Origin: an uncultured delta proteobacterium | GTDB taxonomy: Bacteria; Myxococcota_A; Polyangia; Polyangiales; Polyangiaceae | Assembly: GCA_963841435.1 (NCBI GenBank) | Contig: CAWJCS010000006.1 | Location: 1,216,001 to 1,280,000 of the forward strand | DNA length: 64,000 nucleotides | Direction: 5' to 3' | In this document: in pieces, positions 9,989 to 32,624 of the stretch | Layout: each line of letters opens with the position of its first letter | How positions within the stretch are numbered: position 1 is the first letter of the stretch | Program-made: the position numbers and the translations under genes | Notes under the pieces: model-generated | What the model was told of the DNA's origin: nothing | What the model saw: the letters and a program-made list of their open reading frames with translations, nothing else | Databases searched by the model: none

Positions 9989-10522
9989 TTCTCCGCGTGA
10001 GCGCGCACGAGAAAGTCGCGCACGTCTCGTCGCAGCTTGAGCTCGGCGGTCACCGTCGTCTCCTGGTGCTCCTCGCCGACATGGTCATCGTAGAGGTAGT
10101 CGGTGTCGTGCAGCACGAGCACGCGCGCGTCGCTGTCCTCGCCGAGACCGCTGACGAGTTGCAGCGCGTCGCCCATGCTCGGGTCCCGGGGTGGCAACGC
10201 GGGGCCGAGCGCGTTGCGCTCGTTCGAACGTCACGTAGGCGACGCCGTACTTTCGACCCTGCGCTGCGACGTCAACCTGCAGCTGCCTGCCGGGTGCCAG
10301 AGCCACCGGTTTGCCGTGCACGGGTAGGTCGTGCTCGTCCTGGAATGCCTGAAGCACGATCTCCATCGCGCGCCGCTCGTCGAGCGGGCGTGTCGGGTTC
10401 GCGGCACGCGGTGGCGGCGATCCGCAAGCTTGGACGATCATCGTCACGACCAGCCAAGCGAGGCTCGCTCGCGCGCCCCGAGGGCGCGAGAGCCTGCTCG
10501 CGAGCCGGGCTTCCGCTGTCAT
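9979..10522 (-). CDS. Putative lipoprotein; apparent frameshift at ~10225
   Basis: IVQAC lipobox. ORFs 10085..10531 and 9979..10197 join (GVAYVT...ERNALGPALPPRDPSMGDALQLV) if one base is removed at GTTCGAAC. Confidence 0.7.
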
Positions 10523-10572
10523 TGGACGCAAAAGGTAGCCAAGAGGGCGAGGTTTAGCTAGCTCTCGGCGAC

Positions 10573-11205
10573 ATGCCTCGTCCAGGTCCCTCGGCGGTCC
10601 CGACGCTGGCGCTCGCGGGGCTCCTTCTCGGCTGCGCGCCCAAATCGCTGCCGGATCCGCGCGACGCCGCCCGGACCTACGCGGAAGCAGCCGCCCGCGG
10701 GGACGCCGTCCGGATCCACGCCCTGCTGACCCACGAGGCCCAGCGCCGTTTCGGCGCCGAGGGGACGCGCCGCCGGGTGGCCGACGCCCGCCCCGAGATC
10801 GTCCGGAACGGCAGGGCGCTGCTCGCCCCCGGCGTGCGGGTCGAGGGCGAAGCGACCGTGCTTTTGGCGGACGGGGGTGAGGCGGCCCTGAGCCTCGAGG
10901 GGGACTCCTTCCGTGTCGACGCGGCGGCCACCCTGCCGAGCGCGGCGCGCACGCCGGCGCAGGCGCTCGACGGGCTCAGGCGGGCGCTGCAACAGCGAAG
11001 CTATGCGGCGCTCTTGCGCGTGCTCAGCGTGGACACGCGCGGCTCCGTCGAGGGCGACGTGCGCGCGCTCGTCGCCGGGCTCGAGGATGCGTCGTCGCTC
11101 GACGTGCGCGTGAACGGTGACCGCGCGGAGGTCGACGTGCCCGGGGGCCATGCGGTCTCGCTCAGGCGCGAGGGAGGTGTTTGGCGCGTGGAGGACGTGC
11201 GATGA
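10573..11205 (+). CDS. Lipoprotein (NTF2-like/DUF4878-like repeats)
   Basis: LLLGC lipobox; C-terminal LRREGGVWRV; ATGA overlap with the next gene. Confidence 0.7.
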   Translation: MPRPGPSAVPTLALAGLLLGCAPKSLPDPRDAARTYAEAAARGDAVRIHALLTHEAQRRFGAEGTRRRVADARPEIVRNGRALLAPGVRVEGEATVLLADGGEAALSLEGDSFRVDAAATLPSAARTPAQALDGLRRALQQRSYAALLRVLSVDTRGSVEGDVRALVAGLEDASSLDVRVNGDRAEVDVPGGHAVSLRREGGVWRVEDVR

Positions 11206-11960
11206 GCGGAGTCCCGCGCCGCGCGGCGCTCGGCGCTCTCGCGGCGGTCGTCCTTTCCGGGAGCCGGGCCGGCGCCTTCGGTGAGGCCGGCGCCTTCCGC
11301 GCGCGGCTGCTCGCGGCCGGTAAGACCACGCCGGCCGGCCCACGCGGCCTTGGCGCCGAGCGTTGGGGAGCCGAGCTCGTGAGGCGGACGAGCGCGCCCG
11401 CGGCGCTCGTGGGTGCGCCTGTCGCCGCCGACGCGCCGCGCCTGCTCGCCGAGCCGTTCGCCGTCTGGTCGGGACGCGACGACCCCGGGGCGCTCACCGC
11501 CGCGGAGGCGCGCGGTCTCGAGCGGTTCCTAAAGCTCGGTGGGACGCTCGTCGTCGACGATGCCGAGCCCGGCTCGGGCGCCTTCGATCGGGGTGCGCGC
11601 CGCGAGCTCGCGCGTGTCTTGCCGGAGTCGCCGCCCGTACACCTGCCCGAAGCGCACGTGGTCTACAAGACGTTCTACCTCGTGGAGCGCCCGGTCGGGC
11701 GCGTGCTCGGCCCACCCTACCTCGATGCCATCGTGCGCGGGCGCAACGCCCAGGTCCTGTTCCTTGCTCACGATTTGCTGGGCGCGCTCGCGCGCGCCGG
11801 CGAGGGATGGGCGTTTCCCGTCGAGCCAGGCGGCAGCGAGCAGCGCGAGCGCGCGATCCGCCTGGCCGTGAACATCGCCATGTACGTGCTCTGCTCCGAC
11901 TACAAGGACGACGTCGTGCATGCGCCGTTCTTGCTCCAGCGTCGGGGTCGGGCAAAGTAG
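11202..11960 (+). CDS. DUF4159-family protein
   Basis: L.RFL..GG.LVVDD, H.VYKTFYL, RLAVNIAMY.L..DYK.D pattern; RR-containing N-terminus. Confidence 0.75.
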   Translation: MSGVPRRAALGALAAVVLSGSRAGAFGEAGAFRARLLAAGKTTPAGPRGLGAERWGAELVRRTSAPAALVGAPVAADAPRLLAEPFAVWSGRDDPGALTAAEARGLERFLKLGGTLVVDDAEPGSGAFDRGARRELARVLPESPPVHLPEAHVVYKTFYLVERPVGRVLGPPYLDAIVRGRNAQVLFLAHDLLGALARAGEGWAFPVEPGGSEQRERAIRLAVNIAMYVLCSDYKDDVVHAPFLLQRRGRAK

Positions 11961-11987
11961 CCGGAAGCTCGGCTCGGAGCATTCACG

Positions 11988-14192
11988 TTGCAAGCTTGGT
12001 CGACTGCCGAGGGACTGTCGCCGCTCATGGCCTGGGTGGGCGTCGCCGTCGTGGCGGCGTGGCTCGCCTGGCTGTTCGTGGAGCTCCGCGGTGCACCCGA
12101 GCGGCGCGGCGTGCTCGCGCTGAGCGGCATCGCCGCGGCGGCCATCTGTCTGCTGGCTGTCTTGCGCCCGGTGCGCGTCACCTCGCGCGGCAGCCGCGTG
12201 GGACCGCGCGTCGTCGTGCTCGTCGATCAGGCGCGGCGGCTCCGGCTGCCCGAAGGGCGCGCCGATCGCCGGCAAGTGGCGATTTCGGCCGCGCGCGAGG
12301 TCGTCACTCGATTTGCCGACGCGCGCGTCGAGTTGCGCGGGTTCGGCGACGGCCGACTCGAACCGCTGTCGCTCGCAGACCGTCCGAGCACCGAGCGCTC
12401 GCTCGGCGAGGAGAGCGACCTCGGCGCCGCGTTGCGCGATCTGCTCGCGGAGCCCGGTGAGCGACCTGCGAGCGTCGTCGTCGTGAGTGACGGCCGGCTC
12501 GCTCGGCCCGCCGAGGGCATCGACGAGGCCGCTCTCGAGCGCATGATCGCGGCGCCCGGCGTCGTGCTCCACACGGTGCGCGTCACCGAAGACGCGCCAC
12601 GCGACGCGAGCGTGCGTCGCGTGGCCTTCGCGGGCGCCGCCGTCGCTCACCAGCCGTTCGTGCTGCACGTGACCGTCGGCTGTGCGGGCGGCCTCGCCTG
12701 CGACCGGGTCCCCGTGCGCGTCAGCGAGCTCAGGCGCGGGGGGCCCAAGGTGGAGCTTTCGCGTGGCGTCGCGAGCGCGACGAGTGGAGAGGCGACGCTC
12801 GATCTCGAGGTGACCATCGAGCGCGCCGGCCGGCGCGTGATCGAGATCGAGCTCGACGCCCCCGATGGCGACACGGTGAAGGAAAACGATCGGCGGATCC
12901 TCACGCTCGACGTGGCCCGGGAGCGGGTGAGGTTGCTGCACGTGGCGGGGCGTCCGACGTACGACGTGCGCCAGCTGCGCCGTTGGCTGAAGAACGACGA
13001 ATCGGTCGACCTCGTCGCATTCTTCATCTTGCGCACGAATGGCGACGACCCGAACGTTCTCGACGATACCGCCGAGCTGTCGCTGATTCCTTTTCCCGTG
13101 GACGCTTTGTTCACCGAGCACCTGCCGAGCTTCGACGCGGTCGTGCTGCAGGACATCGACGCCGTCGAATACAAGCTCGAGCCGTATTTGCCGGCGCTCT
13201 CGGCGTACGTGCGTGCGGGCGGCGGCCTGATCATGGTCGGCGGTCCTTCGGCGTTCGCGGGCGGCGGCTACGCCGGCTCGCCGCTCGAGGCGGTGCTGCC
13301 CGTCGAGCTTCCGAGGAGGGGCGAGCCCTACGATCTCAGGGGCTTCGAGCCCGTTCCCACGGCGGCCGGGCGCGTGGCTCCTATGCTGCGCGGGGCGTCC
13401 GAGCTGCTCGGCGACAAGCTGCCGCGCATGGAGGGGTCGAACACGCTCGGTCCCCCGCGCCCCTCGGCGATCGTGCTCTGGGAGCACCCGGGCCGGCGTA
13501 CCGACGCCGGCGGCGCGATGCCCGTGCTCGCACTATCGGAGACCGGTGACGGCCGTTCCATCGCGCTCGGCGTGGACGCGACCTATGAGCTCGGCTTCGG
13601 CGAGCTCGCCGAGCGGTCGAGCGGCCGCGCCTACGGCGCGCTCTGGGAGGGCCTGCTCGGCTGGCTCATGCGCGATCCGCGCTATGAGCTCGGGCGCGTG
13701 ACACTCCCTTCGCCGTGCATCGCGGGTGAGCCCACCGAGCTCGAGCTCGTGCCGCCTCCTGGCAGCGAGGGCGTGCTCACGCTCGTCATCGAAGCGCTGG
13801 GCCCGGACGTCTCGCCCGTCGTGGAGCGGCGCCTGCCGCCATCGGGTCGAACCGAGCACGTCGACATCGGACGCTTGCCGCCTGGCGGATACGGCGCTCG
13901 CCTGGCGGTCGGCGCGGCACCGCCCCTGCGCTTCGACTTCGCTTGCGAGGCGGGCGGCGCCGCGTTCGCGGACGTGCGCCCCGATCCAGCGCGGCTCGAG
14001 CGCCTGGCGCACGCGAGCGGCGGACGGAGCGTCGCGCCCGACGCCGTGGCCGATCTGCCCCGTCCCTCGAGCTCCGAGGTCACGGTCGAGCGCCGCACGA
14101 CGCCGCTTCTGCCCGCGTGGGCGTGGACCGCTGGCGCAGCCGCGGCGCTCGGTGCCCACTGGATCTTGCGGCGCAAGCACGGCCTCGCGTGA
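11988..14192 (+). CDS. Membrane protein with vWA-like and GATase1-like (DUF1355-type) domains
   Basis: N-terminal TMs, VVVVSDG, ENDRR, FFILR, LIPFP, YVRAGGGLIMVGGPSAF, C-terminal W.LRR TM. Confidence 0.8.
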   Translation: MQAWSTAEGLSPLMAWVGVAVVAAWLAWLFVELRGAPERRGVLALSGIAAAAICLLAVLRPVRVTSRGSRVGPRVVVLVDQARRLRLPEGRADRRQVAISAAREVVTRFADARVELRGFGDGRLEPLSLADRPSTERSLGEESDLGAALRDLLAEPGERPASVVVVSDGRLARPAEGIDEAALERMIAAPGVVLHTVRVTEDAPRDASVRRVAFAGAAVAHQPFVLHVTVGCAGGLACDRVPVRVSELRRGGPKVELSRGVASATSGEATLDLEVTIERAGRRVIEIELDAPDGDTVKENDRRILTLDVARERVRLLHVAGRPTYDVRQLRRWLKNDESVDLVAFFILRTNGDDPNVLDDTAELSLIPFPVDALFTEHLPSFDAVVLQDIDAVEYKLEPYLPALSAYVRAGGGLIMVGGPSAFAGGGYAGSPLEAVLPVELPRRGEPYDLRGFEPVPTAAGRVAPMLRGASELLGDKLPRMEGSNTLGPPRPSAIVLWEHPGRRTDAGGAMPVLALSETGDGRSIALGVDATYELGFGELAERSSGRAYGALWEGLLGWLMRDPRYELGRVTLPSPCIAGEPTELELVPPPGSEGVLTLVIEALGPDVSPVVERRLPPSGRTEHVDIGRLPPGGYGARLAVGAAPPLRFDFACEAGGAAFADVRPDPARLERLAHASGGRSVAPDAVADLPRPSSSEVTVERRTTPLLPAWAWTAGAAAALGAHWILRRKHGLA

Positions 14193-18411: not shown

Positions 18412-18620
18412 CCGGAGCGCCATTCTAGCCTCGCCACCGGGCAGGCGCCGCGCGTTGTGCGCTTCCGTGGCCACGGGAGATTTTCGGAGCAGGTGTCATC
18501 GGGCAGGCGAGCTTTGGGGACGTGCAGAAAGCGGCTGGCGAGAAAAAGGCTCGCAAAACCGGGAACAAGGCCGGCGTCGGGGTGCCTGCTCGCTGGGACA
18601 ATGAGGTACACTACTATCTA

Positions 18621-19259
18621 GTGACACAAGCGGTCAGAACCCTGGCGGCTCGCCTACGAGTCATCGACGGCGGCGCTGACCCCCGTGCCTCCGGGCCTAC
18701 CGACGAGGAGCTCGTCGAAGCCGTTCAAAAGGGCGATGCCGCCGTTGCGAGCCTGCTCTACGACCGCCTGCTGAGCGCCGTCGATCACGCGCTGTATCGG
18801 GTGTTCGGCCGGCGCGAGCACGACCACGACGACCTCGTTCAGGCCGCGTTCGAGCAGATCGTGCTGACGCTCTCACGTCGCTCCTACGCTCGCGCCTGCA
18901 GCCTGCAGACCTGGGCTTCGACCATTGCGACGCACGTTGCCTTCAATGCCCTTCGAGCCCGGCGCCGCGAACGGCGCGTGTTCGACCGAGATCCCTCGAG
19001 CACGGCGGACGCCGAGCCCGTGTCGAGCGCCAATCTCGAGCGCGCGGCTGGCGCGCGGGCTGACCTCGCGCGCGTGCGGTCGTCGCTGGTGCAGATGAAG
19101 CCCGAACGCGCCGAGACGGTGTTCTTGCACGACGTGCTCGGTCACGACCTTGCCGAGATCGCGCTGATGACGCGCGTCTCCGTTTCCGCTGCGCAGTCGC
19201 GGCTCGTGCGCGGCCGACGAGAGCTCAGGCATCGCTTGTCGAAGGAGGCGTCTCCGTGA
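18621..19259 (+). CDS. ECF RNA polymerase sigma factor
   Basis: Region 2 (DDLVQAAF...W...IA.H) and region 4 (LHDVLGHDLAEIA...SRLVRGRREL). Confidence 0.9.
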   Translation: MTQAVRTLAARLRVIDGGADPRASGPTDEELVEAVQKGDAAVASLLYDRLLSAVDHALYRVFGRREHDHDDLVQAAFEQIVLTLSRRSYARACSLQTWASTIATHVAFNALRARRRERRVFDRDPSSTADAEPVSSANLERAAGARADLARVRSSLVQMKPERAETVFLHDVLGHDLAEIALMTRVSVSAAQSRLVRGRRELRHRLSKEASP

Positions 19260-20359
19260 ACGTGCGCGACAGCGATCCGGATCTGGTGCGCACGTTGCGG
19301 GAGCTCGGCTCGGGTGGTGTCCCCGTCGCGGATGCCGGGCGCGCGGAATACCAGCGCGAGCGCGTCATCCGTGTGATCGGACGTGCGCTCCAAAGCGTGC
19401 GGAGCGCGCACCGCCGCGGCCGGCGCACTTTCGGGATCGTCGCCGCCGCGGCCCTGCTCGCGCTCGCGGTGGGCGGTGCTCGGCTGGCGCTCGGGAGCGG
19501 CACGGAAACCGCCACCGGCGACGTCGCGACGGGCGCCGTGGCGGCGCGCAGCGTCTTCGGCACCGTCACCGTCACGGGAGTCGGCGTGCCCCACGCGGCG
19601 GTGGTGGGTGATCTGTTCCGCGGCGGCGAGGCCGTCACGACGGCCCTCGATTCGAAGATCGATCTCTCGGTCGAGTCCGGCGTCGCCGCTCTCGGCGCGT
19701 CGAGCCATCTCGAGTTCATGACGCCCAATCAGAAGGAGCGGCGCGTGCGGCTCTCGGCCGGGCGCGTCAACGTGGACCTGCCCGTGAAGCTGCGCGGTGG
19801 GCGCCATCTGGTCGTCGAAACCCCGGATGTAGACGTGCTCGTGGTCGGTACCGCGTTCAGCGTGGGTGTGGACCGGCAGGGGACGGAAACGACGACGCGC
19901 GTCAACGTCCAGCGCGGGACGGTCTGGGTCGTGAAGGGTGGCCGGCAAGAAGCGGTGCTGGTTGCTGGTCAGTCGTGGCGTTCCGGGGCGCCCGTTGCCG
20001 CCACGACCACCGCTCCTGCGGAGTCTTCCGCGACGGCGCCGAAAGCCTCCGTTCGGGCGTCGCGGTCGGGCGATTCGGGAACCCTCGCCGACGAAAACCG
20101 AATGTTTCAAGCGGGTCTCTCGGCGCGCAACGCGGGCGACGCCCAGGCTGCCGCCGACGCGTTCGGTGCGTTGCTCGCTCGCTACCCCCGCTCCGTTCTG
20201 GCCGAGCAAGCCCTCGCCGAGCGCTTCCGCGCGCTCGGGCGTGCTGGCAATACTTCGTCGGCCGCGGCCGCGGCACGCCGCTATCTCGCGAGCTACCCCA
20301 GGGGTTTTGCGCGCGTTGAGGCGGAACGGGTCACACGGGGGTCTCTCGGCGCGCGTTGA
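19256..20359 (+). CDS. FecR-domain anti-sigma factor with C-terminal TPR-like domain
   Basis: TM segment; VETPDVDVLVVGTAFSV...V.VQRGTV; C-terminal L..EN...LARYP.S...YLASYP.G; GTGA overlap with the sigma gene. Confidence 0.88.
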   Translation: MNVRDSDPDLVRTLRELGSGGVPVADAGRAEYQRERVIRVIGRALQSVRSAHRRGRRTFGIVAAAALLALAVGGARLALGSGTETATGDVATGAVAARSVFGTVTVTGVGVPHAAVVGDLFRGGEAVTTALDSKIDLSVESGVAALGASSHLEFMTPNQKERRVRLSAGRVNVDLPVKLRGGRHLVVETPDVDVLVVGTAFSVGVDRQGTETTTRVNVQRGTVWVVKGGRQEAVLVAGQSWRSGAPVAATTTAPAESSATAPKASVRASRSGDSGTLADENRMFQAGLSARNAGDAQAAADAFGALLARYPRSVLAEQALAERFRALGRAGNTSSAAAAARRYLASYPRGFARVEAERVTRGSLGAR

Positions 20360-20472
20360 TGAGCCGGGTGCGCGCGCATCGCACATCAGAGCCTGATTGC
20401 GAGAAGCCGAAGTTACTTAGGGGAGCGTGCGTCGGGTGATGACATCCACGTGCCGCCCTAGGAGGCTTCCCG

Positions 20473-21135
20473 ATGAGGTTTATCAACGTTGGTTTTGGTC
20501 TCGTGGTGTCCGGCGCCCTGGCTACGGCAGTCTCCGGATGCGGTGGTGGTGACGACGACGCGAACGCCCCAATCGTGCCGAGCACGGGCGGCAGCTCGGC
20601 CACGGGTGGCAGCTCCGGCACGGGCGGCACCTCCGGCACGAGCACGGGCGGCACGACGAGCACGGGCGGTACGGGTGGCACGCTGAGCACCGGCGGCACG
20701 AGCGGTACCGGTACTGGCGGTACGGGCGGCACATTGAGCACAGGCGGCACGAGCGGCACGGGCGGCACCGCTGGCATGGCGGGCGGCGGTGGTCGCTTCG
20801 GTGGCGACGCTGGCGGCGCCGGTATGGCGGGCGGCGGTGGTCGCTTCGGCGGCGACGCTGGCGGCGCCGGCATGGCTGGTGGCGGTGGTCGCTTCGGCGG
20901 CGACGCCGGTGGCGCCGGCATGGCTGGCGGCGGTGGCCGCATGGGTGGCAACGCTGGCGGCGGTGGCCGCATGGGTGGCAATGCCGGCAACGCTGGCGGC
21001 GGTGGCCGCATGGGTGGCAATGCCGGCAACGCTGGCGGCGGTGGCCGCATGGGTGGCAACGCTGGCGGCGGCGGCCGCATGGGCGGCAACGCTGGCGGCG
21101 CTGGCATGGCCGACGGCGGAACCGCCGGCGCCTGA
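20473..21135 (+). CDS. Gly-rich lipoprotein with eight GGGGR[F/M]GG[D/N]AG repeats and no globular domain
   Basis: SD GGAGG at 20461; AVSGC lipobox; Thr/Ser/Gly tract followed by the Arg-containing repeats. Confidence 0.85.
   Translation: MRFINVGFGLVVSGALATAVSGCGGGDDDANAPIVPSTGGSSATGGSSGTGGTSGTSTGGTTSTGGTGGTLSTGGTSGTGTGGTGGTLSTGGTSGTGGTAGMAGGGGRFGGDAGGAGMAGGGGRFGGDAGGAGMAGGGGRFGGDAGGAGMAGGGGRMGGNAGGGGRMGGNAGNAGGGGRMGGNAGNAGGGGRMGGNAGGGGRMGGNAGGAGMADGGTAGA
20776..21105 (+). repeat. Intragenic tandem repeats: three 48-nt units (MAGGGGRFGGDAGGAG), then five 30/39-nt units (GGGGRMGGNA[GNA])
   Basis: 48-nt periodic ATGs at 20776, 20824, 20872 and 20920. Confidence 0.9.
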
Positions 21136-21234
21136 GCGGTTCAGAGCTCGCGGCGAGCGCGGCGCCGGGGCGGCCCACGCCCCGGCGACGCGTGACGCGG
21201 CTCGAGCCCCCCGAGGGCGACTAAGCTCTTCCCG

Positions 21235-22752
21235 ATGCGGCTCCTGGGTCGCCTGAAGAGCGTTTATCTCGGCGCCGACGAGCGCAGTCTCGCCGCGGGG
21301 CGCATCGCGCTCGCGGTCGTTCTGCTGCTCGATCTCGCGCGCCGCGCGCGCGAGATCGACACCCTCTACTCCAACGATGGGCTCTTGCCGAACCACACGG
21401 TGCTGTGGCGGCCGTCGTCGAGCCACGTCTTCTCTTTCTTCTTCATGGCGTCGCACGGCTACGAGGCGGCGCTCGGCTTCGCGCTCTGTGCGCTCGTCTA
21501 CGCGGGCCTCCTCTTCGGCCATAAAACCCAGTTCTGCCAAGTCGCGAGCCTTCTGTGCGTGCTCAGCCTGCACGGCCGCACGCAATTCGCGCAGAACGGC
21601 GGCGACAACGTGCTCGGCGAGCTCTGCCTGTTCGCGGCGTTCTTGCCGCTGGGGCGTCGCTACGCGCTCGATGCCCGCGAACAGGCCGCCGGGCAGCGCG
21701 ATGTCCGGTCGCTCGCCATGCTCGCGCTACGTCTCCAGATTGCCACGATCTACGCGTTCAACGCGCTGCAGAAGACGGGACCGACCTGGCGCGACGGGAG
21801 CGTCGTCCACTACATGCTGCACCAGGACGGCATCGTCACGATGCTCGGGGCCTGGCTGCGCGACCGGCTCACGCTGGGCGAATCGGCCGTCATGACGCAT
21901 GCGGCGCACGCGATCGAGGCGGCGTTGCCGTTGTTGATCCTGTCTCCGGTCGCCGTGCCCCACGCGCGGCGCCTCGCAGCAGCGCTCATGCTCGCCTTGC
22001 ACGGTGGCTTTGCGCTGGCTCTGAACCTCGGGATCTTCTCCTTCGCGATGCTCGCGTTCGCCCCATTTTTACTGCCGGGGGAGGACATCGAGCGTTTCGT
22101 CGGCTGGCTCGATAGAACTTCGAAGCGCCACCTCGGCGACACGCGACGACGACTCGTCGCATGGCGCGATCGCTTGCCCCAGGTGACTTCGCGAGGGCGT
22201 CCGGCCCGAACGGAGCCGCACCGGCGCCGTGCGCTCGTGCGACTCGGCGAGGTGACGATCGTCGTCATCATGGGCGTGGCCGGTTGCCAGGAGCTGGTCG
22301 ACAACCCCGTCACGGGGGTCGACCTCTCGTGGCGTCCGCGCGCCGTGGGCGTCGCCGTCGATTACCTGCAGATGCTCGAGGCCTGGGCGATGTACGCGCC
22401 CGACGCGCCCACCACCGACACGAACCTCTGGGTCAACGCCGTGACGCGCGACGGCCGCCACGTCGATCCGTTCAACGAGCGGGCGAGCCCCGGCGCACCC
22501 CGCCCGGGCGGCGCGATTCCCGCGCATCTCGGCCAGAGCTGCCTGCTCTACGCCTACGCGCTCCGCATCCCCTACCAGCCGGCGTACCACCGAGCGCTCG
22601 GCGAATGGATCCTGCGTTACCCGGAGCGCACGGGGCACGCCGGGGACGAGATCCGCTCGTTTTCCGTCTACGCCGTCGAGGACGAGAGTCCCCCGCCGGG
22701 AGAGCGCGAGCCACGACGGGCGAAAGCGCGGTTCTTATTCGGCTATCCGTGA
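21235..22752 (+). CDS. HTTM-domain (vitamin K-dependent carboxylase-like) membrane protein
   Basis: D.RSLA..RI, LYSNDG.LP, NGGD, LPLGRRY.LD, LQIA.IY, K.G..W.DG, LH.G, W.MYAP. Confidence 0.8.
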   Translation: MRLLGRLKSVYLGADERSLAAGRIALAVVLLLDLARRAREIDTLYSNDGLLPNHTVLWRPSSSHVFSFFFMASHGYEAALGFALCALVYAGLLFGHKTQFCQVASLLCVLSLHGRTQFAQNGGDNVLGELCLFAAFLPLGRRYALDAREQAAGQRDVRSLAMLALRLQIATIYAFNALQKTGPTWRDGSVVHYMLHQDGIVTMLGAWLRDRLTLGESAVMTHAAHAIEAALPLLILSPVAVPHARRLAAALMLALHGGFALALNLGIFSFAMLAFAPFLLPGEDIERFVGWLDRTSKRHLGDTRRRLVAWRDRLPQVTSRGRPARTEPHRRRALVRLGEVTIVVIMGVAGCQELVDNPVTGVDLSWRPRAVGVAVDYLQMLEAWAMYAPDAPTTDTNLWVNAVTRDGRHVDPFNERASPGAPRPGGAIPAHLGQSCLLYAYALRIPYQPAYHRALGEWILRYPERTGHAGDEIRSFSVYAVEDESPPPGEREPRRAKARFLFGYP

Positions 22753-22762
22753 CGAGGCGACG

Positions 22763-23827
22763 CTAGTCGGTGTCCCACCAGAAGTAGCTGTGGATGCGAA
22801 ACTCCTGCTCGGGGAGCTTCTTTCCCTCGAGCTCGCCCGCGAAGTGAGCGTCGTAGCTCGACATGGGATTCGCGCGCATCACGAGGCGGCCGCGCAAGGT
22901 GTCCCCGATGTGAACCTCGAGGGGCTTCGCGAAAACGAAGCGCAGCTGCGCCCAGTGCGTGCGTGGCGCGTCGGGCGCCGTGCTCAAAACGACGCGCTCG
23001 GTCGTGCCCTCGAAGGTGACGTCGAACCAGCCGGCGAGCCCGTGAATCGTGCCGGGGTGTGTCGCGACGAACTCGAACGGAAGCACGATCTCGGCGAGGT
23101 CGTCGAGCGGTACCGTGCGAAAGTCGAAGCCGTGCACCACGGGGCTTGCCATGAGCAGGCGGGGAGGGACGAAGCCGAGCGCCGGCATCGCGGAGAGTTC
23201 CTCCGCCGCCACCGACCCGAGGCCCGACAGGTCAACGCCGAAGAAATCGGTCTGCTCCCAGAACTTCTTACGGGAGACGCGGCCCTCGAAAAGCTTCTGA
23301 TCGACGAAGGGGGCGAGCCAGAGCCGACCGGTCGTTGGAAAGAGCGTGCCGCCAGGGCGGAGGAAGCGATCACGCGCGATCAGGAACGCCTCGACCATCC
23401 GCTCGTGGAACAGGAAAAATCCCCACGGCTCCGAGATGATCACGTCGATCGGCTCGGGCATGGAGAGCTCGGCGAGCTGGCCCTTGACGATGACGACCCG
23501 GTCGCTCATGCCATTGTGCTCGAACAGGCGGCGCGCATGCTCGGCCGTTGCCGTTCCCTCGACGGCGTACACCTTGCGAGCGCCGGCGAGCGCCGCGAAC
23601 GCCGACAGGATCCCCGTGCCCGCGCCCACGTCGAGCACGACCTTACCCGCGAAGTCGGCGCGATTGCCGACGATGCCCTGCCGGTAGGCGCCGGTGCGCT
23701 CGCGATCCTCGAGCATCGCCTGTTGGTTCGCGAGGAAGTGGTAGTGGGCCGAATGGACGGCACCCCACTCCGGGAGCACGGGAACGAGCTTGCTCCCGGC
23801 GTCCGGTTTCGGGCTCGAAGACGCCAT
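22763..23827 (-). CDS. CARM1/PRMT4-like type I protein arginine N-methyltransferase
   Basis: QQAMLEDRERT, VLDVGAGTGILS, VYAVE, IDVIISEPWGFFLFHERM (double-E loop), FL.PGG.LFP, FW.Q..F.GVDLS, HGLA.WFDV.F, LSTAP..P.THW.Q. Confidence 0.9.
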   Translation of the reverse strand: MASSSPKPDAGSKLVPVLPEWGAVHSAHYHFLANQQAMLEDRERTGAYRQGIVGNRADFAGKVVLDVGAGTGILSAFAALAGARKVYAVEGTATAEHARRLFEHNGMSDRVVIVKGQLAELSMPEPIDVIISEPWGFFLFHERMVEAFLIARDRFLRPGGTLFPTTGRLWLAPFVDQKLFEGRVSRKKFWEQTDFFGVDLSGLGSVAAEELSAMPALGFVPPRLLMASPVVHGFDFRTVPLDDLAEIVLPFEFVATHPGTIHGLAGWFDVTFEGTTERVVLSTAPDAPRTHWAQLRFVFAKPLEVHIGDTLRGRLVMRANPMSSYDAHFAGELEGKKLPEQEFRIHSYFWWDTD

Positions 23828-23850
23828 CGTAGAGCTCTTGGATCGAGGGC

Positions 23851-25170
23851 TCAGCCGCCCTTTGCCGCACAGCGCATGGCGCACTGCAGGTCGCCGGAGG
23901 AACAGCCGCACTTGCTGCGCGGCTTGGCTGGCGCGGCCGCAGGCTCGCTGCCGCCGCTCGTGCTCGAACCCGAGCTCGACGACGACTTCTTCGTGGAGGT
24001 CACGCGGCGAGTCGTGGTCGTCCTCTTTTTCTCGGGCTTGTCGGGTCCCTCGTCGTCCGCCGACCCCGTGGGTGGTGGGGCCGCCGTGAGGGTCGGGGTG
24101 GGGGTCGGCGTTGGTGCTGCTGCCGGGGGAGGAGGCGGCAGTGGCGCCTCGACGACGGGCGGCGGCGGAGCCGGACGCAGGATGACGGCGAGCGCCACGA
24201 TCACGGCGGCGGCGACGATGGCGATGGCGATGAAGAGGCCCGTCTTGCTCTTCTGTGGCGACGCGAGATCCGCCGCCGTGAGCCCGCCGCCGAGCGGTGA
24301 GCCCAGGCCGAGCGGGGCCGAGACGCCGAGCGGCGCCGTGCCGAGCGGTGACATCGCCGGGGCCGCAGTGAGTGGCTGGGCCGCGGCGGCGCCCTCGGAC
24401 TTCACGGCGGCGGCCGTGAGTGCCTTCAGATCGATGAGACCCGAGTCGTCACGGCTCGCGGTCGTGGAGGAGCCGCGTGGAGCCGGCGCCGACCGCGACG
24501 GCGACGACGCCGACGCCAACGTCAGCGCGCTCAGCGAGAACAGCACCGACGACTCATTGCGCGCGCCGGTTGCTCCAGCCAACCCGCCGCCTCCCAATCC
24601 CCCGGGTTCGGGAGCGCTGGTCGCGACGTCCTCCTCGCTGCCGGCGCGGTCGATGCGTCCGAAGAGGTCGCTGCCCGCTGCCCGCGCGGGCCGAGCGGCC
24701 GCTCTCACGGGGCTTGGTTGGGGCGGCGGCGCTTCGGACTTGGCTTCCCAGGGCGATGCCGCGGGGGCCGGCGCCGCTTGCGCGTGGCCTGCCGCCGCGT
24801 GCAGCGCTTCCACGATCTCGTCAACCTCGGACAGCGCCTTCCAATCCTCGAAGCCGTCTGCCCAAACGTACGTTTCGCCCGTGATCTGGCCTGCATTGTA
24901 GGCTGCAACGATCTCGGCGACCGGCATCGTGCGCTGATCGCCGTCACCGAGGTCCACCGAATACTCAGGGCCTGTTTCCGCCTGTTCGCTCATGGGATGC
25001 TCTTCTGCCGGTTCCCCGCCCGTTGAAGCCGTGACGGACGGAGGGTTCACCTTACCGTCGATGACGATGGTCGCGCCGCACTTGCGGCAGCGGATCTTCG
25101 CCAGCCGAGACACCACCTTCTCGTCGGAGATGGAGTACTTCGCGGAGCAGGAGGGACAACTTATCTTCAC
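23851..25170 (-). CDS. Zinc-ribbon (MJ0042-type) + GYF_2 membrane protein, GltJ/AgmX-like N-terminus
   Basis: CPSC.AKY.I.D...RCRKC; GQITGETYVWADGFEDWK.LSEV; RNESSVLFSL and SGLIDL motifs; TM; Pro-rich tail; C-terminal CGC..GDLQCAMRC. Confidence 0.85.
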   Translation of the reverse strand: MKISCPSCSAKYSISDEKVVSRLAKIRCRKCGATIVIDGKVNPPSVTASTGGEPAEEHPMSEQAETGPEYSVDLGDGDQRTMPVAEIVAAYNAGQITGETYVWADGFEDWKALSEVDEIVEALHAAAGHAQAAPAPAASPWEAKSEAPPPQPSPVRAAARPARAAGSDLFGRIDRAGSEEDVATSAPEPGGLGGGGLAGATGARNESSVLFSLSALTLASASSPSRSAPAPRGSSTTASRDDSGLIDLKALTAAAVKSEGAAAAQPLTAAPAMSPLGTAPLGVSAPLGLGSPLGGGLTAADLASPQKSKTGLFIAIAIVAAAVIVALAVILRPAPPPPVVEAPLPPPPPAAAPTPTPTPTLTAAPPPTGSADDEGPDKPEKKRTTTTRRVTSTKKSSSSSGSSTSGGSEPAAAPAKPRSKCGCSSGDLQCAMRCAAKGG

Positions 25171-25482
25171 GCTTGGCCTCGTGAGGGACCCGGGCTGGGG
25201 TACAGGGATACTATCATCGGAAAGAGACCGCTCCGGTCCAGCGGTCGCATCATTAACCAAGCAATACGGAGCGCTCTGCGATTCGGTCTGGCCTGCCTAG
25301 CAGACGGTGAAACGGGCGCCGGAGCGCACCCTTTTAGCTAGATTCGCCCGTGAGCGCCAGCTTCAAGGGCGAGAGCCTGCCCGACCGAGTTCGACACCCC
25401 CTTCTTCCAAAGGCTTTGCTAGTTTTTGGGGGCTCGGGGCCGGGAGGGTCGGAAAACGCTGGGATTTGGAGGCCTTCCCGGG

Positions 25483-26146
25483 TCAAGGCTCGCCCTCCGG
25501 CCCCCGGCCCAGCCGGGAAAGGGCGGTCAGCGCGGCGATTCGCTCGGCGAGCTCCGGATTTTCGCCGTCCTCGGCACGCAATGCACGAAACAACTCGTGC
25601 GTCGCGGCCGCGAGATCGCCTTCGGTGATTCGCGCTTCCGCGCGCTTGGCGTAGAGCTTCGCCGCCTTCGAACGGCAGAGCTCGTCGAGTGAACGAGCTC
25701 CCGTGTCGGCCCGATCGGCCGTCGTGCCGTCGGAGTCAACATCGAGCCGGAGCTCGCCCTTCGCGAGGGCGAGATCGTAGGCCGCGCGACGCTCCGGCAC
25801 GATGAGCGCCTGGTACGCCTCGACGCCCCGCCGGAAGACTCGCAGGGCAATCCGACGCGCAGCGTCATCGCCGCGCGACTGGGCGTCGGGGTGGAACGCC
25901 AGGGAAAATTCGTGGAACGCGCTTCGGATCGCGTCGGCGTCCGCAATCTCGAGGACGCCGAGGATCTCGTAGTAGCTCGCGTCGTCGAGCACGCCGTCCC
26001 ACGCCATCAGGTGCGCGAGATTCGAGCGACGCCGCGTCCTCGGCGGGCTCGAGAGGATCGAAGCCGGCGTCGGGTGACGGCTCGATGGGCGGCCGGCTCG
26101 AGCCCGGACCAGCGCCGTCGTCGCCCGCATCGTTTGCTTCGCTCAT
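25483..26146 (-). CDS. J-domain (DnaJ-type) co-chaperone; possible frameshift at ~26021 (intact alternative start ATG 26007)
   Basis: SYYEILGV...FHPD...EAYQAL..PERRAAYD; C-terminal TPR-like helices. Confidence 0.85.
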
Positions 26147-26163
26147 GTAAAAACGAGCACCGC

Positions 26164-28420
26164 TCAACCGGTGCGCTGGGCGGCGTGACGCGCTGCGAGG
26201 CCGGCGACGTGTTCGGGCTCGGGAATGGCGACCATGTGGACCTTCGCCAACGTCTCTCGCCCGGTCTGCACGTCGCGTGCGCTCACCTCGAGCAGACCGT
26301 CCGTGTCGAGCGCGAAAGTCACCGCGACCTCCACCGTGCCGCGCGAGCCTGCGCGCAGACCCGTGAGCTCGAGCTCTCCGAGCAACGTGTTTTCAGCGAA
26401 CCGACTCGACTCGCCCTGACCGATGCGCACTCGTACAATCGTCTGGTTGTCGGATGCCGTGACGAAGTTTCGTCGCTTGCTGCAGGGCACGGGCGTGTTG
26501 CGAGCGATCAACGAGTCGGAGTAACCGCCGATGGTCTCGACGGAGAGCGTGAGCGGCGTCACGTCGATGAGCACGGGAGGTGGAGCCGCGAGCGGCATGG
26601 GGGCGGGCGCTGGGAGCGGAGCGGTGAGCGCTGCGGCCGCCGCCGCGGGAGCGGGCACCGAGGGCAGCGGGGGACCGGCGTCCGCGGGCGGCGGCATGGG
26701 CGGTGCGGGGCCGACCCGCGTGGGAGCGTCGTCGGGCACCTCGGGAAGCGGCAAGGACGCTTCGTCGAGATCCTCGAGCTCGGCGGGCTCGAGTAGCTCG
26801 ATGTCGTGGACGCTCGTCGAGGCCGGCGGAGGGGGTGGGGGCGGCGGAGGGGGCGGAGGTAGAGGTAGGGGCGGTAGCCGTGGCGCTGCGCGCCCAGGGG
26901 TGTCCGGTGGAGACAGCGGTGGCGCGAGCGCTGCCGTGCGGGCCGCGTCGCCGAGGCCGCTGCCGGTCTTCGTCCGCGCGCGGGCGCCGAGGCCGAGCAG
27001 CGTCGACCCTTCACGGTGCGTCGGGGTCTCGGGCGTGAGCGCCGCGGGCGGCTGCGCAACGCCCGGTCGCGTCACCATGCCGCGGCGTGGCTCGAACGGC
27101 TTGGTCTCGGGTGCGACCTCGCCCTCGGCCACCATGCTGCTCAGCCTGACGCGCCCGGGTTCGGCGGGGCCGCCGCTCGCGTCGCCGCTCGGTCGCGTCG
27201 TGCGCGCGACGCCGCGCTGCGTGTTCGCAAGGCGTGCAGGCACCGGCGGCGCGGGCACCGGGGCGCGTCGCCGCTCCGTTCCCGAAAGCGCGCTCGCCTG
27301 AATCGCGGCGCCCACCGCGACGACCTCGTCGGGGCTGACGTGGTGGTTTCCTTCGCGGCGGAAGAATTCCTCCACGCGCCGGCGAACGAGGGGAATTCGT
27401 GTCGACCCGCCGACCAGCAGCACCTGATCGAGGTCGGTCACGGAGAGCCGCGCCACGCCGAGCGCCTCGCGGCAAACGTCGAACGTCTGATCGACGATCG
27501 GCGCGATCGTGATCTCGAGCTCGCCCCGCGTCATCTCGAAGTTGAAATCGATCGAGCGCCCGTCGGGACCGTGCACGACGTCCTCCATCGAGACGCTCGC
27601 GGAGTCGTCCGTCGAACAGGCGCTGCTTCAGATCCTCGGCGGCAATCCGGAAGCGGTCGAACAGCACCGGGTCGGTGCGCACGTCGTAGCGGTGCTTGCG
27701 GAGGAAGAGCTCCGCCATGCGCTCGGCGATCGCGACGTCGATGTCGTCGCCGCCGAGGAACGTGTTGCCGGCCGTCGCGAGCACCTCGAAAACGTTGTTC
27801 GACAGATCGAGCAAGGTCACGTCGAACGTGCCGCCGCCGAAATCGTAGACGGCGATGCGCTCGGCGCTGTCCTTGCCGTAGCCGTACGCAAGCGCGGCGG
27901 CCGTGGGCTCGTTGAGGATGCGCAGCACCTCGAGTCCCGCGACGCGTCCGGCCACCTTCGTGGCGGCACGTTGCAGGTCGTTGAAATTTGCCGGCACGGT
28001 GATGACGGCCTGCTCGACGGGCACTCCGAGCGCGGCCTCGGCCACGGTCTTCGCCTTACGCAGCACGAACGCGCTGATCTCGGGCAGCGTGTAGGTTTCG
28101 CCGCGCGCGAACACGAGCGTGGACTGGCCGGGGCCCTCGCGCATCTCGAAGGGCAAGCGCGAACGCGCGCGCCGGACCTCCTCGGTGTCCCAGCTGCGTC
28201 CGATGAGCCGCTTGACCGAGTAGATCGTGCTCCCGGGGTCGATGATGCGGCGATCCTTGGCCGTGCGTCCGACGAGCACGCTGCCGTTCGGGTGGAAGGA
28301 CACCACCGAGGGAATCAGCGTGTTTTCCCGCTCGTCCGGCAGTGGCTGAGCTTCGCCGTCCCGAACGGCCGCGACGACGGTGTTGGTCGTCCCGAGGTCG
28401 ATGCCGACGACCTCGCTCAC
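26164..28420 (-). CDS. Hsp70 (DnaK-family paralog) with long Pro-rich insertion and no lid domain; apparent frameshift at ~27615
   Basis: GIDLGTTN, TVPANFND.QR, NEPTAAAL, DFGGGTFD, LVGGSTRIP, PDEVVA.GAA, LIDVTPL, T.SDNQ. The two ORFs join as KQRL|STDDSASV. Confidence 0.88.
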
Positions 28421-28968
28421 GACCGTACCCCCGCTTCGATCTCGATCTCGCGAAGCACGGCGTCGTACCAACGCGCGATCGTCCCTTCGAACGGCCACAT
28501 CCAGCCGTAGGCGCCGCCCGTGAAGCGTTCGACGATGGTCTTGCGAAGCGACGGCGAGCGCGCGCTCTCGAGCCCGCGCAGGTGTGCCGTCGCGCGCAGC
28601 GTCTCGCGATAGGCTTCCCACTCGAGCCGCGCGCGACCGTACGCGAGCCCGATGGGGAAGAACGGGACGAGGTAGACGAATGCCATCAAGGCAAGGCCGT
28701 AGCGTCGGCGCTGGCGGAGGTGGACGCGCTCGTGGTGGAGCACGATCGCGCGGTCGATGTCGGGTGTGTCGTCCCAGGCGAACGGCGTGTAGAGCGTGTA
28801 GCCGAGCACGGTGTGGTAGCGGGTGAGGTACTCGCGCTGTGCCCCGAGCGTGAGGACGCGCAACAACCAATCGATGGCGACCGAGAGTGGGTCGCCACGC
28901 TTGGGCACGAGTCGGAATGCGGGGAATTCCTCCGTGATTTCAGCGATCAAGCCCTCGGCGAGCGCCAC
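28417..28968 (-). CDS. Hypothetical protein with HExxH zincin-like motif
   Basis: LHHERVHLRQ, a hydrophobic segment, then LEWEAY; GTGA-coupled to the Hsp70 gene. Confidence 0.7.
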   Translation of the reverse strand: MALAEGLIAEITEEFPAFRLVPKRGDPLSVAIDWLLRVLTLGAQREYLTRYHTVLGYTLYTPFAWDDTPDIDRAIVLHHERVHLRQRRRYGLALMAFVYLVPFFPIGLAYGRARLEWEAYRETLRATAHLRGLESARSPSLRKTIVERFTGGAYGWMWPFEGTIARWYDAVLREIEIEAGVRS

Positions 28969-29004
28969 GGGCCCGAGGCTAGCACCCTGCGGCCCGAGTT
29001 GGGG

Positions 29005-29940
29005 TCAGATCTGTGGCGCACCGAGCCGCTCGCCGGGGCGGAGCACGCGGCCGTTGACGAGGTCGCGTCCGCTCACCTCGCGCCGTCCCTCGGCTGTGGC
29101 CCTCACGATCTCGATCGAGCCGCTTCCGGTCAACACCCAGGGCGAGCCGCCTTCCACCTGCACGGTACCCGGCGGGCCCGGCCGGTCGGCTTCGCTCGCG
29201 CGAACGGCGCCGAGGCGCAGCGTCTTCGGCCCGATCGTCGTGAACGCACTCGGGCGCGGCGCGAGCGCTCGCACCTGGTTCGTGATGCTCGACGCCGACG
29301 CCGAAAAGTCGACGCGCCCGTGCTCGCGCTCGAGCGGCGGCGCGAGCGTGGCGAGCGACGCGTCTTGCGGTTCGGGGCGGAGCTCGCCCCTGACGGCGCG
29401 AGCGAGGTCACGATCGACGACCGTGGCCGCAAGCTCCCCGAGGCGCACGGCGAGCTCACCCCCGGTTTCGTCGGCGCCAATCGCGATGGTGTGGCGGCTG
29501 AGCACGGCGCCCGTGTCGAGTCCCTCGTCCATCTGCATGAGCGAGATCCCCGTCTCGGTCTCGCCGTGTAAAATGGCCCACTGGATGGGCGCCGCACCCC
29601 GGTAACGCGGCAGGAGCGACGCGTGCAGGTTGAGCGCCCCCGCGGGCGCGACGCCGAGCACGTCGGGCGGCAGGATGCGGCCGTACGCGAGCACGAGCAG
29701 CACGTCCGGATGTCTGGCGTCGAGCCAGGCGCGAAGCGCGCCGTCGCGCACTTTGGGCGGCTGAAACACCTCGAGCCCGCGCTCGGCCGCTTCGAGCTTG
29801 ACGGCCGGAGGGCGCAGCTCGAGTCCCCGGCCTGCAGGCCGATCGGGCTGGGTCACGACTCCCACGACCTCCGCCACTTTCGTGAGAGCGGCGAGGGAGG
29901 GGACGGCGATCGCCGGTGTGCCGAAGAAGATCGCGCGCAT
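29005..29940 (-). CDS. fmt: Methionyl-tRNA formyltransferase
   Basis: FFGTP, VTQPDRPAGRG, AYGRIL, NLHASLLPRYRGAAPIQ, MDEGLDTG. Confidence 0.95.
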   Translation of the reverse strand: MRAIFFGTPAIAVPSLAALTKVAEVVGVVTQPDRPAGRGLELRPPAVKLEAAERGLEVFQPPKVRDGALRAWLDARHPDVLLVLAYGRILPPDVLGVAPAGALNLHASLLPRYRGAAPIQWAILHGETETGISLMQMDEGLDTGAVLSRHTIAIGADETGGELAVRLGELAATVVDRDLARAVRGELRPEPQDASLATLAPPLEREHGRVDFSASASSITNQVRALAPRPSAFTTIGPKTLRLGAVRASEADRPGPPGTVQVEGGSPWVLTGSGSIEIVRATAEGRREVSGRDLVNGRVLRPGERLGAPQI

Positions 29941-30173
29941 GGCCAGGTCGCAGGCGGGCAACGGCAGACTAACAGAGGGCGGGTCAACCCGCCGAAGCCA
30001 CCAAGCGGCTCACCGAGCCCCCGATGCGCCAGCCCGCTCGGGACCCGGCCGCGAGGCTAGGTCGCCCGAGGGCGCGAGCCCTCGGCAAAGCAGCCCCGGG
30101 GGAGCGTGGGAGCAAATCGGAACGGAGGGGGCTGGCTTTGTCGTCGGGGCTGATTACGTTGCGATTCTAGGCC

Positions 30174-32624
<2,451 letters not shown>

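Follow-up and report, generated by a model that had tools for sequence, protein, structure and literature searches.

The gene considered here encodes a predicted protein arginine methyltransferase (PRMT) of 354 aa and occupies positions 22763-23827 (minus strand) of a 64,000-nucleotide stretch of contig CAWJCS010000006.1 from an uncultured delta proteobacterium of the Polyangiaceae; the whole stretch, with a G+C content of ~69%, will be referred to as the window. Comparison of loci with and without this gene indicates that it is a rare bacterial methyltransferase of the CARM1 type that arrived together with the genes for a lipoprotein carrying RG (Arg-Gly) repeats and for a membrane protein with an HTTM domain. 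This three-gene insertion was overlooked in the initial annotation of the window, which had instead coupled the PRMT to the product of its upstream neighbour, a membrane protein with a zinc ribbon and a GYF domain (ZnR-GYF protein). To our knowledge, PRMT-type protein arginine methylation has been treated as essentially eukaryotic. A PRMT gene beside the gene for a protein with all its Arg residues in Gly-Arg repeats would provide an enzyme and a candidate substrate with which arginine methylation in bacteria could be tested directly, and the PRMT itself appears to be a clear-cut example of genes exchanged between eukaryotes and Myxococcota.

Domain and structure-database searches clearly demonstrated that the PRMT, as had been proposed, is genuine. 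The family PRMT_C (PF22528), which represents the C-terminal beta-barrel/dimerisation domain, matched with an E-value of 8.3e-23 (81.6 bits against a cut-off of 27), and a search of the PDB yielded 21 distinct CARM1 sequences matching residues 27-333 at ~1e-88 (best E 1.3e-88, 300 bits), the alignment to the CARM1 core containing a single one-residue gap. PRMTs other than CARM1 scored lower, with 189 bits for plant PRMT 4.2 (3r0q) and 163-178 bits for PRMT6, 2, 1, 8 and 3. The S-adenosylmethionine motif I, VVLDVGAGTGIL, aligns with the corresponding CARM1 motif (VLDVGxGxG followed by an acidic residue), the double-E loop, SEPWGFFLFHERM, with SEPMGYMLFNERM of CARM1 (pattern SExxGxxLxxExM), and the THW loop, RTHWAQ, with LTHWYQ. 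Among 26 bacterial homologs with 44-68% identity to the PRMT, residues D66, V67, G68, G70 and G72 of motif I as well as E90 are invariant, as are S132, P134, G136, H141 and E142 of the double-E loop and T290, H291 and W292 of the THW loop, and E133 is kept in at least 90%. Only methyltransferase and PRMT_C families were matched in the protein; the N-terminal PH-like domain and the C-terminal extension of CARM1 were not found. With its 354 aa, the PRMT is therefore CARM1-like in the core and not a full CARM1; its sequence predicts an intact type I enzyme of the CARM1 (PRMT4) subfamily that consists of the catalytic core only.

In a collection of 5.8 billion proteins, ~90 bacterial-length clusters with 45-68% identity to the PRMT were detected, some of them named as proteins of Polyangiaceae or Deltaproteobacteria metagenome-assembled genomes and several labelled CARM1 by JGI; CARM1 of a rotifer, a fish and Fonticula showed 45-48% identity. 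Among sequenced relatives, the gene was found in 6 of 47 genomes of the genus, including that of the window (the genus tallies contain one genome, G316, flagged as unpublished), in 2 of 11 genomes of a second genus, g97, and in none of a phylum-wide sample of 400 other genomes (E up to 1e-60). A family sample of 301 genomes, again with the window's own, contained close orthologs besides that of the window genome only in G240 (same genus), G267 and G320 (two copies), plus a separate PRMT-like clade of 32-39% identity in 17 genomes. The window genome has a single PRMT_C match, and a profile scan of genome contigs with the PRMT alignment gave, among the matches listed, distant relatives of 28-37% identity. 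This patchy distribution (6/47, 2/11 and 0/400) might suggest a PRMT without function that was merely carried along when DNA was recently transferred horizontally. We regard this as extremely improbable, since all 11 copies adjacent to a ZnR-GYF gene are open over 335-360 aa (one runs off the contig end) and 57-66% identical to the window PRMT (tblastn), the catalytic motifs are invariant across the 26 homologs down to 44% identity, and the metagenomic clusters are numerous and of bacterial length.

A FastTree tree of 178 cores placed 31 bacterial proteins in one monophyletic group (support 0.997) inside the CARM1-like clade, with Fonticula and the fungi Allomyces, Kappamyces, Mrakia, Coemansia and Smittium as sister (0.876). 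Eukaryotic non-CARM1 PRMTs (Rhodelphis, Ceratiomyxa, Diaphanoeca and Protostelium) fell outside this clade together with other bacterial PRMT-like proteins of 30-39% identity, which formed the outgroup in the trees. In an IQ-TREE analysis of 59 rows (LG+G4), the CARM1-like clade including the PRMT was supported with 100/99; two bacterial groups and the remaining eukaryotes formed an unresolved trichotomy, with a long-branched diplonemid at its base. A tree holding all eukaryotic and unnamed rows together was not rejected by the approximately unbiased (AU) test (p 0.132), so that a bacterial source for CARM1 is conceivable. Acquisition of the PRMT from a eukaryote would be the most parsimonious explanation of a transfer that may have run in either direction, and a bacterial clade that is sister to eukaryotic CARM1 rather than nested in it appears less likely. 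A limited literature search found no description of a bacterial CARM1-type enzyme.

The origin of the present gene order became apparent when loci with and without the PRMT were compared. In PRMT-lacking loci, the ZnR-GYF gene abuts a gene pair for an extracytoplasmic function (ECF) sigma factor and its anti-sigma factor. In three such loci (L150, L165 and L171) ZnR-GYF is followed, as the next matched gene, by a homolog of the FecR-type anti-sigma factor gene (window open reading frame (ORF) 19064-20359), at a distance of ~77 nt from the ZnR-GYF stop in L150 and L171 and ~450 nt in L165. Beyond it, a homolog of the ECF sigma gene (window ORF 18429-19259) follows in L150 and L171; in L153 and L168 only this ECF sigma homolog was matched, near the end of the 1.5-kb flank. 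In PRMT-bearing loci, the genes for the RG-repeat lipoprotein (plus strand), the HTTM protein (plus strand) and the PRMT (minus strand) lie between the sigma/anti-sigma pair and ZnR-GYF. The lipoprotein gene of the window (20473-21135) encodes 220 aa and the HTTM gene (21235-22752) 505 aa, the latter being convergent with the PRMT gene with stop codons 10 nt apart. On the far side stand the ECF sigma factor (18522-19259, plus strand; Sigma70_r2 5.8e-10, Sigma70_r4_2 5.2e-09, Sigma70_ECF) and the FecR-type anti-sigma factor (19256-20359, plus strand; FecR 7.4e-07, TPR_6). This arrangement argues that the PRMT entered one sub-lineage of a Polyangiaceae-like genus within a three-gene block of ~3.5 kb and is not an original partner of ZnR-GYF; from the same locus comparison, one insertion event explains the adjacency of the two genes. 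The cassette would have been inserted between two convergent units, the ZnR-GYF side with the Hsp70 and J-protein genes upstream and the ECF sigma/anti-sigma pair.

The HTTM protein exceeded the family cut-off (39.3 bits against 27.7, E-value 7.3e-10; PF05090) and matched the SdpB family weakly. Its best five matches outside the window genome (51-54% identity) come from the five other PRMT-bearing genomes of the genus, and the sixth (51%) from the PRMT-lacking genome G006. The family is represented by five matches in the window genome and several in most genomes of the genus. No Gly-rich ORF was found near the HTTM orthologs of G006 and G021; one HTTM paralog on another contig of the window genome (G000:C1) is convergent with the gene for a Gly-rich lipoprotein of a different kind.

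The third member of the cassette is the candidate substrate. The RG-repeat lipoprotein begins with a putative signal peptide carrying a lipobox and ending in ...AVSGC (MRFINVGFGLVVSGALATAVSGC, judged by eye), and six orthologs show [AV][ILV]TAC followed by GDDD, the lipobox again being judged by eye. The mature part consists of 48% Gly, lacks Lys and has all eight Arg residues in GGGR[F/M]GG repeats such as GGGGRMGGNAG and GGGGRFGGDAG; no Pfam family was matched. Gly-Arg motifs are of the type methylated by eukaryotic PRMTs. All seven distinct PRMT-bearing loci whose flanks are long enough have a counterpart upstream of the HTTM gene; these counterparts share the signal peptide and a C[GAT]GDDD start and show repeats such as GGGGRVGG, GQGGRVGG, GGRGGAS and GQGGRTGG. 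In a genome of another genus (G320:C3, locus L132), the PRMT ortholog (10405-11484) is followed after ~90 nt by a same-strand gene (11574-12224) for a 217-aa lipoprotein with GVGGRGQGG repeats, with neither HTTM nor ZnR-GYF nearby. The window genome (7.8 Mb) contains 5 lipobox-bearing RG-repeat ORFs among 42,309 ORF segments of at least 100 aa, and the chance of adjacency within 3 kb was put at ~0.4% in a rough, post hoc estimate. A paralog of the lipoprotein gene (G000:C5:442039-442710) with 67% identity and GGGGRMGGNAG repeats was observed with no HTTM or PRMT gene nearby.

Reading the lipoprotein frame as the real one requires a choice between the two strands. On the minus strand, an ORF with PPMRPPPP repeats (20331-21107) is co-oriented with ZnR-GYF and the PRMT, and its product could at once be a ligand of the GYF domain and a CARM1-type substrate. 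The window and 5/5 orthologous loci examined keep this frame open, and the ligands of GYF domains are Pro-rich sequences according to the consulted part of PMC11135422. However, an open shadow frame is expected opposite a Gly-rich repeat, the start codon is not conserved, CCA makes up 31% of the Pro codons compared to at most 18% in neighbouring genes, and the plus-strand frame begins in every locus with what is, by eye, a conserved lipoprotein signal peptide of canonical form. The minus-strand ORF is thus very improbable as the real gene; it was judged a shadow ORF for want of a conserved start and because of its CCA-rich Pro codons, and the lipoprotein frame was chosen over it.

Several observations nevertheless weigh against the RG-repeat lipoprotein as the substrate. 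Such a lipoprotein stands beside the PRMT in only two of five independent contexts: the context type L130/L181 shows a Gly/Thr-rich lipoprotein without Arg repeats, and in the contexts L131 and L188 no such lipoprotein was found beside the PRMT. Because a single insertion may underlie all cassette loci, these have to be counted as one observation. The repeat criteria were chosen with the window gene already in view, and the strand opposite the repeats does hold the open Pro-rich frame. An HMMER search for the lipoprotein matched 6/47 genomes of the genus but is uninformative: the syntenic copies of G240 and G336 were missed, and other contigs carried the matches obtained in G335, G005 and G014. 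CARM1 prefers Pro-rich over Gly-Arg motifs. In addition, methylation would have to precede export, since the lipoprotein is exported and the PRMT has no signal peptide. A limited literature search found nothing on arginine methylation of a Gly-Arg-rich bacterial lipoprotein; lysine-methylated surface adhesins, for example mycobacterial HBHA, provide a precedent for methylated envelope proteins.

The PRMT might instead act on cytoplasmic Gly-Arg-rich proteins encoded elsewhere, such as RNA-binding proteins with an RNA recognition motif (RRM) and an RGG tail, ribosomal or other RNA-binding proteins, its neighbours being only the landing site. The window genome encodes an RRM_1 protein (3.1e-21; L236, G000:C3:522138-522581) with a long C-terminal RGG tail. 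RGG-tailed RRM proteins of the hnRNP type are classical substrates of eukaryotic PRMTs, the protein is cytoplasmic like the PRMT, and three of the five independent contexts are without an adjacent RG-repeat lipoprotein. Against this stands the finding that an RG-repeat lipoprotein adjoins the PRMT in two unrelated contexts, and we consider a substrate elsewhere rather unlikely.

The initial annotation had looked for the substrate on the other side of the PRMT, suggesting that methylation of Arg residues in the cytoplasmic linker of the ZnR-GYF protein regulates a motility or polarity scaffold like GltJ of Myxococcus xanthus. The ZnR-GYF gene (23851-25170, minus strand) encodes a protein of 439 aa that includes the peptide SPVRAAARPARAAG. 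It starts with a zinc ribbon (Zn_ribbon_4 2.5e-10, MJ0042_CXXC 9.7e-08) and GYF_2 (6.2e-09), continues with a linker, a single membrane-spanning helix and a region rich in Pro, and has the tail CGCxxxDLxCxMxC at its C-terminus. The linker contains the Arg/Pro/Ala-rich tract PVRAAARPARAAG (pattern P[A/E]RAAAR[P/T]A..R), which we take to resemble the CARM1 sites of histone H3 and PABP1. The 23-nt spacer between the two genes and their adjacency in all six PRMT-bearing genomes of the genus and in eight metagenome loci (L174 among them being a duplicate of G240) speak for this linker as substrate, as does the switch function of the ZnR-Linker-GYF module of GltJ described in the available part of PMC11135422, where ZnR-GYF proteins are presented as widespread switches with variable ligands.

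Nevertheless, the tract is not specific to PRMT-bearing genomes. It is equally conserved in ZnR-GYF orthologs of PRMT-lacking genomes, and in four PRMT-bearing loci a Lys takes the place of the middle Arg. Nor does a built-in partnership of the two proteins hold, as ZnR-GYF orthologs occur in 41/47 genomes of the genus compared to 6/47 for the PRMT. With respect to neighbourhood conservation, the gene order is kept in all six PRMT-bearing genomes of the genus, whereas another genus and one metagenome lineage have the PRMT without a ZnR-GYF, J or Hsp70 neighbour: none of these three genes, nor HTTM, was found within 10 kb of the three g97 copies, which are flanked by genes for response-regulator diguanylate cyclases, a hybrid histidine kinase and Gly-rich lipoproteins, and the 5 kb upstream of the PRMT in metagenome locus L188 are without ZnR-GYF. 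Among the 17 metagenome loci, the remaining eight have <500 nt of upstream flank. A linkage that is not conserved was one half of what had been named as speaking against the proposed partnership, and it was found in g97 and L188. The scaffold hypothesis rests on an adjacency made by a single insertion.

The link to gliding motility itself did not stand up to closer comparison either. Against the NCBIfam model gliding_GltJ (NF033761), the ZnR-GYF protein reached 54 bits with a cut-off of 450, in two short stretches, the best covering residues 1-51, so that only the widespread ZnR and GYF domains are common to both; a TonB-C (AgmX/PglI) tail was not detected, neither NF033768 nor a TonB family matching the protein. 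The window genome has 12 GYF_2 matches, ZnR-GYF among them, and 11 gliding_GltJ matches, none of which reaches the cut-off for a GltJ equivalog. Regulation of a motility scaffold by arginine methylation is thus unsupported, and methylation of the linker is an improbable function of the PRMT; of the two candidates, the RG-repeat lipoprotein is the likelier target.

Apart from the tract, further parts of the ZnR-GYF protein are highly conserved. Among 35 aligned orthologs of the genus, the linker motif GxRNESSVLFSLSALT is invariant, as is the four-Cys tail (window 23854-23900). The tail was also present in 12/12 full-length orthologs of other genera of the family and in 0/17 weaker matches; it could serve in metal binding or form a periplasmic disulfide knot. 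Three paralogs of the window genome have their C-terminal region in common, which by eye resembles the AgmX/PglI tail, only one of them (L192) matching NF033768 (18.3 bits, below the cut-off of 40). Another observation concerns the paralog L193, whose C-terminus is AgmX/PglI-like by eye and whose gene is divergent beside two HTTM-like genes (G000:C4:668391-671470); ZnR-GYF/HTTM adjacency therefore occurs twice in the genome.

The close coupling of the two genes described in the initial annotation was confirmed. The ZnR-GYF stop codon (TGA, 23853-23851) and the PRMT start codon (ATG, 23827) are separated by a spacer of 23 nt (23828-23850), and the spacer measures 14-30 nt in 11/11 PRMT-bearing loci. 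A consensus scan found no terminator-like or sigma-70-like promoter site in the spacer of the window, in agreement with joint transcription. Within the run of minus-strand genes to which both belong, the only terminator-like site on that strand is a hairpin at the Hsp70 stop (26174..26157, two overlapping calls); a further call, upstream of fmt, is at 30205..30187. For ZnR-GYF, GTG 25170 is the best choice of start codon, as GTGAAG with a preceding GAGG is invariant in 24/24 aligned loci. With this start, the gap to the J-protein gene is 312 nt, matching the ~310 nt reported earlier, and across loci it ranges from 234 to 312 nt. This intergenic region (25171-25482, minus strand) retains sequence blocks in the 24 loci, namely CT[G/A]GCG...TAAAAG, AGACCGA-N14-CGTA and a stem-loop before GAGG-N8-GTG, and probably serves as promoter or 5' leader. 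No match was obtained when 20000-31000 was scanned against Rfam (E up to 0.1), and folding of the region upstream of ZnR-GYF gave no consistent structure. A sigma-54 promoter was considered and rejected because the conserved blocks, compared by eye, do not fit the consensus; an ECF-like promoter would be a guess. From their position, with the short spacers and the conserved upstream blocks, ZnR-GYF and the PRMT are likely to form a transcript of their own. Folding of the 100 nt downstream of ZnR-GYF did not separate PRMT-bearing from PRMT-lacking loci, hairpins of -18 to -49 kcal/mol being found in both classes of this GC-rich DNA. Five PRMT-lacking loci (L166, L167, L164, L163 and L158) show long clean stems after ZnR-GYF, most of them followed by T runs.

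The explanation we favour, though tentatively, is that the CARM1-like PRMT arrived with the cassette and that the RG-repeat lipoprotein is its likeliest substrate. Since its start lies 14-30 nt behind the ZnR-GYF stop, the PRMT would, with good probability, be transcribed by read-through from the ZnR-GYF promoter region; transcription of the lipoprotein and HTTM genes may start from the ECF sigma/anti-sigma unit or directly behind it. Possibly, the lipoprotein precursor would be methylated by the PRMT at its RG repeats while still in the cytoplasm, prior to export, and, more speculatively, the HTTM protein might act on the lipoprotein at the membrane. An enzyme/substrate pair of eukaryotic kind, in which the PRMT methylates the lipoprotein precursor and a GGCX-like HTTM enzyme matures it further, appears doubtful as a whole. 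If true, it would represent an arginine-methylated cell-envelope protein in a myxobacterium.

The PRMT gene closes a series of six minus-strand genes at 22763-29961, and both ORF and Pfam matches agree with the co-oriented run from fmt to PRMT as originally annotated. The first gene, fmt (29005-29940, or to 29961), encodes methionyl-tRNA formyltransferase (Formyl_trans_N 1.4e-36, Formyl_trans_C 3.8e-16) and is divergent from lon (30174-32624, plus strand). It is followed by a gene (28417-28968) for a 183-aa protein with the HExxH-type motif HHERVH, for which no Pfam or NCBIfam family was matched; this gene is kept between fmt and Hsp70 in relatives with 65-70% identity. The J-domain protein is encoded at 25483-26130 (DnaJ 1.4e-11). 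The Hsp70 gene (26164 to about 28420) is present as annotated (HSP70 2.9e-88 and 8.3e-55), though not as one open frame: the nucleotide-binding domain (NBD) lies in ORF 27011-28870 and the remainder in ORF 26164-27588, owing to one extra base near 27611 (27605-27620) in comparison to three intact orthologs. Both halves are highly similar to the orthologs (83-86% for the NBD). In the same assembly, the paralogous ZnR-GYF gene L194 (G000:C4:508338-510290) seems to lose its frame after ~330 residues, so that indel errors are perhaps not rare and an assembly error is as likely as a recent mutation in Hsp70. The Hsp70 is atypical in that a long Pro-rich insert of ~250 residues, including a run of 13 Pro (window 26400-27300), separates the NBD from the substrate-binding domain; that this insert is a ligand of the GYF domain of the adjacent ZnR-GYF protein would be speculative.

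The J-protein and Hsp70 genes precede ZnR-GYF whether or not the PRMT is present. A J protein was found upstream of ZnR-GYF in 27/30 loci of the genus, nearly all 27 also having Hsp70, and among the 11 strongest ZnR-GYF orthologs of other genera, four have both genes at most 1.5 kb upstream. The trio Hsp70-J-ZnR-GYF was compared to the stk locus of M. xanthus and this identity was rejected, as StkB is SCP2-like and StkC PhaE-like in the part of PMC4319316 that was available; 15 hsp70 genes are annotated in M. xanthus according to an excerpt of PMC8265645.

In comparison to known systems, the PRMT is closest to eukaryotic CARM1/PRMT4, with which it shares a core that aligns nearly without gaps, motif I, the double-E loop, the THW loop and PRMT_C. 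It differs in the absence of the N-terminal domain and the C-terminal extension, in a gene context of a membrane protein and lipoprotein cassette instead of chromatin, and in a candidate substrate motif of the Gly-Arg type as opposed to the Pro-rich motifs of CARM1. The ZnR-GYF protein resembles GltJ (AgmX) of M. xanthus in the zinc ribbon joined to GYF_2 by a flexible linker (the ZnR-Linker-GYF module in the accessible part of PMC11135422) and in the single transmembrane helix followed by a Pro-rich periplasmic stretch. Unlike GltJ, it ends in CGCxxxDLxCxMxC without the TonB-C/AgmX-PglI tail, and its neighbours are Hsp70, J protein, PRMT, HTTM and ECF sigma genes, not Glt genes, no genome-wide search for other Glt genes having been made. 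The cassette membrane protein carries the HTTM domain found in GGCX, MloH and SdpB; the family includes the vitamin K-dependent carboxylase GGCX and MloH, which modify or mature secreted proteins or peptides, as far as described in the portion of bioRxiv 10.64898/2026.08.19.745780 at hand. Finally, in the available sections of their paper, Aravind and colleagues (PMC3417536) derive eukaryotic PRMTs from bacterial peptide methylases and place the PRMT-like peptide methylases of bacterial secondary-metabolite operons as sister of all eukaryotic PRMTs. The window PRMT differs from the enzymes covered there in being specifically CARM1-like and much closer to eukaryotic PRMTs, and no NRPS (nonribosomal peptide synthetase), dioxygenase or amine-oxidase genes of the kind found in those operons were seen near it. 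What both systems have in common, on the basis of the same sections, is a PRMT-fold enzyme whose gene stands beside those for a further modifying enzyme and for the peptide or protein presumed to be its substrate.

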